From NCBI GenBank assembly GCA_032128375.1, contig JAQBGU010000188.1, forward strand, positions 64,001 through 128,000: a stretch of DNA of 64,000 nucleotides, written 5' to 3'. The notes under the pieces were generated by a model. That model saw only the letters and a program-made list of their open reading frames with translations, had not been told where the DNA came from and did no database searches. This DNA comes from Deltaproteobacteria bacterium. Its GTDB lineage: Bacteria > Myxococcota_A > UBA9160 > SMWR01. This document shows, in pieces, positions 46,265 to 48,281 of this stretch (the first letter of the stretch is position 1; every line of letters begins with the position of its first letter). Position numbers and translations under genes: made by a program.

Positions 46265-47214
46265 TTGACGACGACGCGCCCGTCCATTCCGCTGACGACG
46301 AACCTGACGACGTCGTTGATCAGGCGCTGGTGAGCCTGGCTAAGGAGCTGGCCGAGCAGCTGGCCGACCGCTATCGCATCGAACCCGAAAACGCCTATAT
46401 GTCGTTTGTCGAGTCGTGGTTGAACAATCGACCGCTGCGAGAACAAGCCGCTCGCGAATCTGATCATCGGCGCTTGAAGCGAACCCGCGCCTACAAGCAA
46501 GCAGCAGATAAGGTCAAGACGATCACCTACAACAGCCTTCGGAAATACAAACAACAAACACAACAGATGGCAGAAGGTGTGGACGCACTCGGCGAGCTTG
46601 CCAATGAAGGTGTCGACCCGAAAGACCCCCGCGCCATCGCTGCCCGCGAGCGAATCGTCGCCTCGCATGTCAGCACGCGCGAGCGACTGCCCGATCTCGA
46701 AGCTTTCCTCGCCGCGCTTTTCGAGCTGGCCCCAGAGCCGACGAGCATCCTGGATATCGGCTGCGGTCTGCAGCCCCTCCTCTACCCGTTCGAACGTGAC
46801 GGTGGTGTCACGTCGCACTACCTCGCCCTCGACAAGGACAGCTCGATCGTCGCGGCCGTCAACGGCTGGGGGCGACTCGTCGGCGGGCGGCGTCTGCAAG
46901 CGCGGCGCTGGTCTCTATCCGAGGGATTCGAAAGCGTGATCGGCCCCGAGTCCGACGGAATCTTCTCACTCGCTCTGGGCCTGAAACTGATCCCAGTGCT
47001 GGCGCGGCAGGAGCGCAACCAGTTGCCACTGTTTCGAGACATTCCCGCACGGCGTTTCCTGATCAGCGGTGCACGCGAATCGATGGTCAAACGCCGGAAC
47101 ATCGAACGGCGCGAAAGAGCCAGCCTGCTCGCCTTCGCCGACGCATTGGGCTTTCAAGTCCTCGGAACACTCGAAACTGGGAGCGAGCTGGGTCTGCTGC
47201 TGGAGACCCGATGA
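46261..47214 (+). CDS. Divergent ArmA/Rmt/Sgm (FmrO)-like SAM methyltransferase
   Basis: [46 protein letters not shown] and a C-terminal SEL. TTG start overlaps the queC stop (TTGA). Confidence 0.72.
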
Positions 47215-48281
47215 CGAACTCACGACACGTACCGCCGCTGGTGACGCGGGCGGGCATCCGGTACGAACAACCCCTATTCCTACCGGTCTACCAACCGCGG
47301 GAGCGCGTGTTTCAGCTGGCGGCATGGGAGGGCGAGCCGCGCATCGAGGGCATCATCGTCAACGCGTACTTCCTCTACAAGATCCGGGAACTCCGCAAGC
47401 GGCTGGCTGCGGATTCCTCACTCAAGGAGTTCGTCGGCTTTCCCGGTTTGGTGACAACCGACTCGGGTGCGTTTCAAGGCCTGACCCGCCAGTTGTATCT
47501 GTCCAACAAGAAGATCGTGCGGTTCCAAGATGCCATCGGCTCCGACATCATCGCCCCCTTGGACTTGATCACGCCTCCCGGAGACAACCGCACCAACGCC
47601 GAGGGCAAGCTGCGCGCGACAGAGAAACGCGTACAGGAGGGGCTCGCGCTGGTCGAGAGGGGTACCCTCGCAGGCGTTCAACAAGGCGGGCGTTTTCTGG
47701 ACCTGCGCCACGAAAGCGTAAACCGGTTGATGGCGATGGGGGTCGAGTATCTCGCGATCGGCAGCCTGGTGCCGTTCTTTACCGGCAACCACAATCTCGC
47801 CTTTCCCGCAGCCGTATTGGTCGATGCACGCCGCACGGCAGGGCCCGACATACCCATGCACGTCTACGGTGCCGGCGACCCTTGCGAACTGCCCTTCATG
47901 GTCGCATGCGGCGCGACGGTCTTCGATTCTTCCTCGTACGGCCACTACGCCCAGGGGGGCTGGTACATGACACCGTACGGTGCCCTCGCAGGGTCGGGAC
48001 CGATCCTCGCCGGAGAGTTCAGCTGCGCGTGCCCCGTATGCCAACAAGCGCCGATCGACGCAGTGTTCTCGGACCGCACTGCCCTCGCCCGGCATAACCT
48101 GTGGACGATCTGCAACACGGTTCGGAACCTACGCCGGCTGGTTCGAGCGCCAGATGAACTCGACGCCTACTTGGAGCGGATACTCGAAATCCACCAGGTT
48201 TGGTTCCCGGAGAGTCGGCTGGAACCGTCCTGGCGAAGTGTCCAGGACGCGCTGTTGCCGATCAGGAATGGGGGCGGCTGA
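47211..48281 (+). CDS. Archaeal-type tRNA-guanine transglycosylase-like protein (catalytic domain only)
   Basis: [53 protein letters not shown] and Zn site CACPVC-x17-H (ARHNL). ATGA overlap with the upstream gene. Confidence 0.88.

Follow-up and report, generated by a model that had tools for sequence, protein, structure and literature searches.

A two-part bacterial system pairing an archaeal-type guanine transglycosylase core with an Rmt/FmrO-like methyltransferase, a candidate preQ0-dependent RNA-modifying enzyme

The 64,000-nucleotide stretch of DNA analyzed here (the window), part of a 6.2-Mb, 91% complete assembly of a Deltaproteobacteria bacterium, carries a three-gene operon in which a small tRNA-guanine transglycosylase (TGT) of archaeal type is preceded by a gene for an S-adenosylmethionine (SAM)-dependent methyltransferase and by queC, the gene for 7-cyano-7-deazaguanine (preQ0) synthase. 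Both the TGT and the methyltransferase have recognizable folds and intact catalytic motifs, the two genes are paired in other bacteria and fused in some, they occur together across genomes, and they are linked to preQ0 genes. The explanation that we favor, with slightly better than even confidence, is a two-part and sometimes fused RNA-modifying enzyme composed of an ArcTGT-like core and an Rmt/FmrO-like module, which would insert preQ0 into folded RNA. In this reading the two proteins would interact physically, and the base that they bring into their RNA substrate would be preQ0.

The original prediction, made from the DNA letters and their translations, described the product of 47211-48281 (+ strand, 356 amino acids) as the catalytic domain of an archaeal-type TGT, found in a bacterium and lacking the C-terminal domains that bind tRNA. 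This description is upheld by Pfam and NCBIfam searches, by alignment to a solved structure and by the predicted fold, and the motifs on which it was built are all found in the translation (52 protein letters, plus CACPVC-x17-H295). The reading frame is open on the + strand for all 356 residues, and the opposite strand in the same register contains stops. A TGT domain (E 1.1e-40, residues 17-328) is the sole Pfam domain of the protein. Among NCBIfam models the best is TgtA (TIGR00432) at 201.9 bits, below its cut-off of 350, with the bacterial Tgt (TIGR00430, 62.4 bits, cut-off 306.75) and DpdA (NF041059, 22.9 bits, cut-off 200) models also below theirs. The top solved relative is the ArcTGT of Pyrococcus horikoshii (1iq8, E 2.7e-42), followed by QTRT1 (E 1.5e-09) and bacterial Tgt at about 1e-09. 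Residues 15-313 align with residues 28-325 of the 582-residue 1iq8 chain, and therefore the catalytic domain alone is present; the C1, C2 and PUA domains are missing. By contrast, an archaeal-type match from our searches (P0019) carries TGT_C2 and PUA. A predicted model, built from a 5-sequence alignment and of moderate confidence (pLDDT 76.4), has 1iq8 and the ArcTGT-tRNA complex 1j2b as its best fold matches, with TM scores normalized to the query of 0.80 and 0.78.

The active site is conserved in this small protein. D84 and D239 align with the catalytic aspartate pair of P. horikoshii ArcTGT (D95 and D249), and the DSGAFQ and FDSSSY motifs as well as the CxCxxC...H zinc site (C272, C274, C277 and H295) also align with 1iq8. 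Across 34 members of the clade described below, D84, S85, Q89, D118, Q157, Q158, G184-S-L-V-P188, H217, D239, S240 and H295 are invariant, and the zinc cysteines are at least 90% conserved. In one Acidobacteriota member (locus L003, TGT at 7950-9047), two of the three zinc cysteines have been lost (C-A-S-P-F-S). The base pocket departs from the archaeal form. A preQ0-specific pocket had been proposed, which the sequence does not establish: the archaeal V197/V198 pair, described in a 2016 review as the change that shifts specificity from preQ1 to preQ0, is replaced by L186/V187 within the invariant GSLVP motif. On these residues, the pocket combines features of the bacterial (L/A) and archaeal (V/V) forms, and because of this replacement the sequence does not settle which base is incoming.

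To place the TGT among its relatives, a profile made from 5 homologues was searched against 1.84 billion representative proteins. It retrieved 8 proteins at 342-512 bits, after which scores fell to 226 bits or less; 219 proteins in total matched at E values up to 1e-30, with PUA-carrying matches among the lower scorers. A tree of 113 rows (IQ-TREE quick search, with SH-aLRT as the only support measure) was then built from clade members, archaeal-type representatives (every third one from P0010 to P0151, at least 330 amino acids long), DpdA and bacterial Tgt, after removal of 15 near-identical clade rows and of rows shorter than 250 amino acids. Two rows, bTGT_G028 and bTGT_G004, were disregarded as misextracted reading frames without a TGT profile match. 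The 61 clade rows form a single branch (SH-aLRT 99) apart from the 43 archaeal-type, 2 DpdA and 3 bacterial Tgt rows. The nearest row outside the clade is a 351-residue archaeal-type representative, and the two DpdA rows, both bacterial (about 504 bits to the DpdA model) and with no phage DpdA among them, lie on a long separate branch. The original prediction had staked its reading on the gene falling outside canonical bacterial Tgt and characterized DpdA, and by the tree and the NCBIfam scores it nests in neither. Judged by its sequence, the TGT belongs to a small bacterial clade of its own, distinct from bacterial Tgt, DpdA and true TgtA. Nothing close to it was found in phages, where 50,697 records gave 11 tblastn matches, all at 25% identity or less.

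The original prediction had suggested a need for a partner protein, which is strongly borne out, and had treated queC as the directly adjoining gene, which it is not, since the Rmt/FmrO-like methyltransferase gene (open reading frame 46162-47214, +) stands between them. We assembled 79 related loci, 4 from genomes and 75 from metagenomes, and left one (L097, 30% identity) out of the tally. By profile detection, the methyltransferase is present in 60 of the remaining 78 loci, in 58 of them within 300 nucleotides of the TGT. It lies downstream on the same strand in 54 cases, upstream on the same strand, as in the window, in 4, and on the opposite strand in 2. Most of the 18 loci without it are ones in which the contig ends within a few hundred bases of the TGT. 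When only loci with at least 1 kb of sequence on both sides are counted, the methyltransferase is adjacent in 29 of 32, or 21 of 23 after collapse at 85% identity. The three exceptions are L003, in which it is found about 9.7 kb away on the same contig, L055 and L059. In two loci (L064, 1243-4496, and L072, 1028-4281), the genes for the TGT and the FmrO-like methyltransferase are separated by two genes for AAA_35-type ATPases, and all four have the same orientation.

The pairing extends to whole genomes and to single polypeptides. Each of the 5 genomes that carry the TGT contains exactly one strong methyltransferase match (290-356 bits). Among the 40 nearest relatives of the window genome only the same-genus assembly has the TGT, and none of 300 other genomes of the phylum has it at E up to 1e-50; in those 300, methyltransferase matches were found in only three, all weak (76-95 bits). 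The three long proteins among the top representatives, P0002 (644 amino acids), P0004 (617) and P0009 (686), are all TGT-methyltransferase fusions, identified by Pfam in P0002 and P0009 and by BLASTP in P0004 (E 6e-32 over methyltransferase residues 25-315). They belong to different subclades of the tree, and in each the methyltransferase is C-terminal to the TGT, at the point where ArcTGT has C1-C2-PUA.

The partner in the window (46261-47214, +, about 317 amino acids) is predicted to start at TTG 46261, although its longest open reading frame runs from GTG 46162; the TTG overlaps the queC stop, and conservation among homologues starts only downstream of it. The protein matches the Pfam family FmrO (PF07091) at 58.7 bits against a cut-off of 27, and the NCBIfam Rmt_gen model for 16S rRNA guanine1405-N7 methyltransferases at 69.7 bits, below the cut-off of 250. 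A profile of 34 clade methyltransferases matched only 8 distinct PDB sequences, all of them aminoglycoside-resistance methylases that form N7-methylguanine at position 1405 (m7G1405). The predicted model is of high confidence (pLDDT 94.4), and its top 9 structural matches are RmtF, Sgm, RmtB, RmtC and ArmA structures (Z 18.0-22.1), with other methyltransferases at 16.2 or lower. In two loci (L037, 3780-4874, and L038, 8926-10020) the match to the methyltransferase is split between two reading frames, which points to either a frameshift or an error of sequencing in this lineage.

Within the clade, the invariant positions of the methyltransferase include H136-x-S138-T139-x-E141-R142, D165-x-G167-x-G169 and R249, and conservation of D191 and K242 is at least 90%. 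Residues were mapped onto RmtC through a HMMER alignment, and the roles of the counterparts are those given in the RmtC description: S138 corresponds to Ser107, which contacts the carboxyl of a SAM analogue, D191 to Asp160, which contacts its ribose, K242 to Lys204, which contacts N7 of G1405, and R249 to Arg211, which contacts the h44 backbone. Because the residues of both the SAM site and the guanine-N7 site are conserved, the partner looks like an active guanine-N7-type RNA methyltransferase and not a dead scaffold. The loop that matches RmtC Loop237-246 has a clade-specific sequence, MTKRxxIxRRER, in which R284 and E285 are invariant, and the structural alignments run only from model residue 75-99 (chain residue 42-63) to the end. 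They begin beyond the helical N-terminal part, so that the Rmt N1 docking residues (RmtC Lys20, Tyr21, Arg50 and His54) are barely compared, and judged by the alignment ranges alone the invariant Y96 may match RmtC Tyr60.

The third member of the operon is queC (45497-46264, +, 255 amino acids; Pfam QueC, E 4.4e-76; TIGR00364, 207.3 bits against a cut-off of 150.3). Its junction with the methyltransferase gene is a 4-base overlap, as is that between the methyltransferase stop and the TGT ATG, and because of these overlaps the three genes look translationally coupled. The presence of queC had been taken as evidence for preQ0. The gene is indeed there, and its weight is smaller than was assumed, as it is the sole strong QueC match in the 91%-complete genome and also serves two canonical Tgt enzymes. 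The genes for these paralogues lie on other contigs (C12:35347-36411 and C241:6096-7136) and score 494.6 and 462.2 bits to Pfam TGT and 486.6 and 423 bits in the bacterial Tgt (TIGR00430) comparison. With two canonical Tgt genes and no other strong queC, the operon queC must, on this gene content, also feed the ordinary queuosine pathway. Canonical Tgt is present in all 5 carrier genomes; the same-genus assembly likewise has two canonical Tgt genes. Two tandem queD genes lie elsewhere in the window genome.

A link to preQ0 supply is supported by recurrent neighbors. QueC is encoded on 12 of the 79 loci, and queD and/or queE adjoin the TGT in five (L003, L029, L034, L039 and L040); no queF was seen among the scanned neighbors in the window and the other loci. 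This gene context favors preQ0 as the probable incoming base. The TGT of L003 has queD/queE on one side and a UDG-superfamily gene on the other, and a gene for an AsnB-type amidotransferase lies upstream.

We propose that the TGT core, through Asp84 and Asp239, would replace one specific guanine of a folded RNA by preQ0, which would be supplied by the co-transcribed QueC together with QueD and QueE encoded elsewhere in the genome. The methyltransferase would take the place of the missing C1-C2-PUA domains and provide RNA docking and base flipping. Since its SAM site and guanine-N7 site are both conserved, it probably also methylates a guanine at N7, either the same guanine before exchange or a neighboring one. 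The homologies of the two halves point to different targets, the TGT relatives acting on tRNA and the relatives of the partner on the 30S subunit, and the target could be either. As we weigh it, small-subunit rRNA is the foremost candidate at somewhat less than an even chance, tRNA is next with a substantial minority of our expectation, and another RNA or DNA holds the smallest share.

Several observations weigh against the proposed two-part enzyme. The proposals for the incoming base, for the target and for a physical complex all come from sequence and gene context. The L186/V187 pocket, in place of V/V, may accommodate preQ1 or another 7-deazaguanine, and the ordinary queuosine pathway could account for part of the queC linkage. 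Loci L055 and L059 have no methyltransferase within about 3-7 kb. L052 contains two tandem clade TGT copies (4883-5920 and 8575-9612) with an unrelated Methyltransf_24 gene between them (7043-7798, minus strand), and no FmrO-like gene was found on its 9.7-kb contig. The first 75-94 residues of the methyltransferase do not align to the Rmt N1 subdomain, which is responsible for 30S docking, and because of this rRNA targeting cannot be read from homology. Finally, drug resistance would not require the transglycosylase if m7G1405 were made by the methylase on its own.

The competitor that survives best, which we nevertheless consider unlikely, is a special form of the same explanation: a bacterial tRNA-guanine(15)-type transglycosylase that would act on tRNA as ArcTGT does, with the methyltransferase as a subunit that binds tRNA or introduces a second modification into it. 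In its favor, no solved structure is close to the TGT apart from ArcTGT (1iq8) and the ArcTGT-tRNA complex (1j2b), TgtA is the best NCBIfam model for the TGT, and tsaE, a gene for the tRNA modification t6A, is the immediate upstream neighbor, in the same orientation, in L067, L077 and L084. A truncated ArcTGT without PUA is reportedly still active in vitro. Set against this, the partner has sequence and fold relatives only among enzymes that modify the 30S subunit, the tree places the clade outside the archaeal-type rows, its TgtA score is 201.9 bits against the 350-bit cut-off, and the tsaE synteny is limited to closely related loci.

The opposite specialization, to the small ribosomal subunit, is in its full form a somewhat longer shot. 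Here, the Rmt-like module would flip and N7-methylate a guanine of the decoding center (G1405 or a neighbor), and the TGT would then swap the methylated base for preQ0. N7 methylation would render the guanine cationic and thus a better leaving group, and the substituent at position 7 would fit the pocket that normally holds the 7-cyano group.

Insertion of a 7-deazaguanine into DNA in the manner of DpdA, with the methyltransferase as a DNA-targeting partner replacing DpdB, is improbable. DpdA likewise has an arcTGT catalytic core without PUA, according to the 2016 review, the module has the patchy distribution typical of mobile systems, and the UDG-superfamily gene adjoins the TGT in L003. This is outweighed by the DpdA model score (22.9 bits against 200), the distant position of the DpdA rows in the tree, the sparse and remote phage matches, and the kinship of the partner with RNA methylases. 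No recurrent DpdB/DpdC-like, DNA-modification, restriction, helicase, defense or mobile-element genes were seen in the neighborhoods examined (10 window proteins, and 19, 29 and 80 in other loci).

More doubtful still is a small-molecule pathway, in which the methyltransferase would act on free preQ0, as HuiC does in huimycin formation, and the TGT-like enzyme on a free base or nucleoside to yield a 7-deazapurine metabolite. SAM methyltransferases that tailor preQ0 are known in 7-deazapurine clusters (10.64898/2026.04.15.718813), and queC, queD or queE cluster with the pair in several loci. Against this, the methyltransferase keeps the equivalents of RmtC K204 and R211, residues that contact a flipped RNA guanine and the RNA backbone, and the scanned neighborhoods contain no recurrent set of glycosyltransferase, regulator or transporter genes. 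To our knowledge all characterized TGT enzymes act on polynucleotides, which also counts against it. We give equally little credence to the idea that the adjacency is meaningless, with a lone or decaying TGT-like paralogue beside an ordinary intrinsic 16S m7G1405 resistance methylase: the FmrO match above its gathering score and the few clade members without an adjacent methyltransferase would suit it, but it has to face three independent fusions, adjacency in 29 of 32 loci in both gene orders, strict co-occurrence (5 of 5 carriers versus 0 of 300 non-carriers), a score of 69.7 bits against the Rmt cut-off of 250, and invariant catalytic residues in both proteins.

A comparison with known systems shows what is shared and what is distinctive. 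With ArcTGT/TgtA, the clade TGT has in common the TIM-barrel core and zinc subdomain, the catalytic aspartate pair, the Q169 equivalent and the CxCxxC...H site; it differs in the absence of C1, C2 and PUA, in the L186/V187 pocket, in its position in a separate bacterial clade, and in having a methyltransferase partner or fusion. The partner resembles the m7G1405 methylases (Sgm, RmtB, RmtC, RmtF and ArmA) in its fold, its HxSTxER and DxGxG motifs and its equivalents of RmtC Ser107, Asp160, Lys204 and Arg211, and is unlike them in its low Rmt score, its unaligned N-terminal 75-94 residues, its MTKRxxIxRRER loop and its linkage to a TGT. The QTRT1/QTRT2 heterodimer offers a precedent for a catalytic TGT subunit with a second subunit, and QTRT1 is itself a weak match (E 1.5e-09); QTRT2, however, is a TGT paralogue and not a methyltransferase, and the substrate base of that enzyme is queuine. 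DpdB, the counterpart in the DNA system, is a ParB-like ATPase. DpdA/DpdB is similar in that, as the 2016 review describes, a PUA-less enzyme of the TGT superfamily needs both preQ0 and a second, separate protein; the clade TGT is distant from DpdA in sequence and in the tree, has no dpd-type neighbors, and has an RNA-methylase homologue as its partner.

We found no account of the TGT/methyltransferase pair in the literature, judged largely from titles and abstract openings and without supplements, and no paper joining FmrO with 7-deazaguanine or preQ0 with G1405. Passages searched in the 2016 review and in two 2026 preprints, on 7-deazapurine mining and on the QueC family, make no mention of the pair, and the QueC-family preprint has zero matches for TGT, methyltransferase or rRNA.

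Known TGT enzymes place 7-deazaguanines at tRNA position 34, at tRNA position 15 or in DNA. The clade described here is a fourth branch, one that is bacterial, without tRNA-binding domains, and tied to a relative of the 16S rRNA m7G1405 methylases by adjacency, co-occurrence and fusion. The pairing points to an undescribed RNA modification pathway that uses preQ0. If the small-subunit version were true, it would provide the first case of a 7-deazaguanine in rRNA and of base exchange activated by methylation, and it might also offer a new way to aminoglycoside insensitivity or to ribosome tuning. The system makes testable whether bacterial RNA contains 7-deazaguanine beyond queuosine, whether N7 methylation and base exchange can be chemically coupled, and whether the native role of environmental relatives of clinically important resistance methylases is a different one. 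Its two or three genes make this a small module, which should be easy to express and assay.

Upstream of queC is an intergenic leader (45156-45496, +), delimited by inspection of the sequence, in which the promoter of the operon would be expected; a promoter scan of 45100-48500 found no sigma-70-like site. No Rfam family reaches its gathering score anywhere in the window, and hence no known preQ1 riboswitch was found, and the two terminator-like matches in a scan equal the shuffle expectation, neither being convincing. The operon is flanked by acyl-CoA dehydrogenase genes on the opposite strand and by a convergent gene for a LacZ-type beta-galactosidase (Pfam and NCBIfam); by their predicted products, these surroundings are neither a defense nor a mobile island. 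Apart from the preQ0 genes, the neighbors of the TGT differ by lineage, with aminotransferase, cytidylyltransferase and GH65 genes in one group of loci, thiL-like and tsaE genes in another, and sigma factor and FecR genes in L004.

Two further features of the window lie outside the operon. A 457-residue open reading frame (51579-52952, -) has a 4-base overlap with the end of the gene for 2-oxoglutarate dehydrogenase E1 (52949-55825), in the place where an E2 gene would be expected, and gave no Pfam or NCBIfam match at E up to 0.01. At 40601-41773 (+), a gene for a PA0069-family radical SAM protein (455.5 bits, cut-off 360) adjoins an F420-dependent LLM oxidoreductase gene on the opposite strand, and appears unrelated to the TGT.

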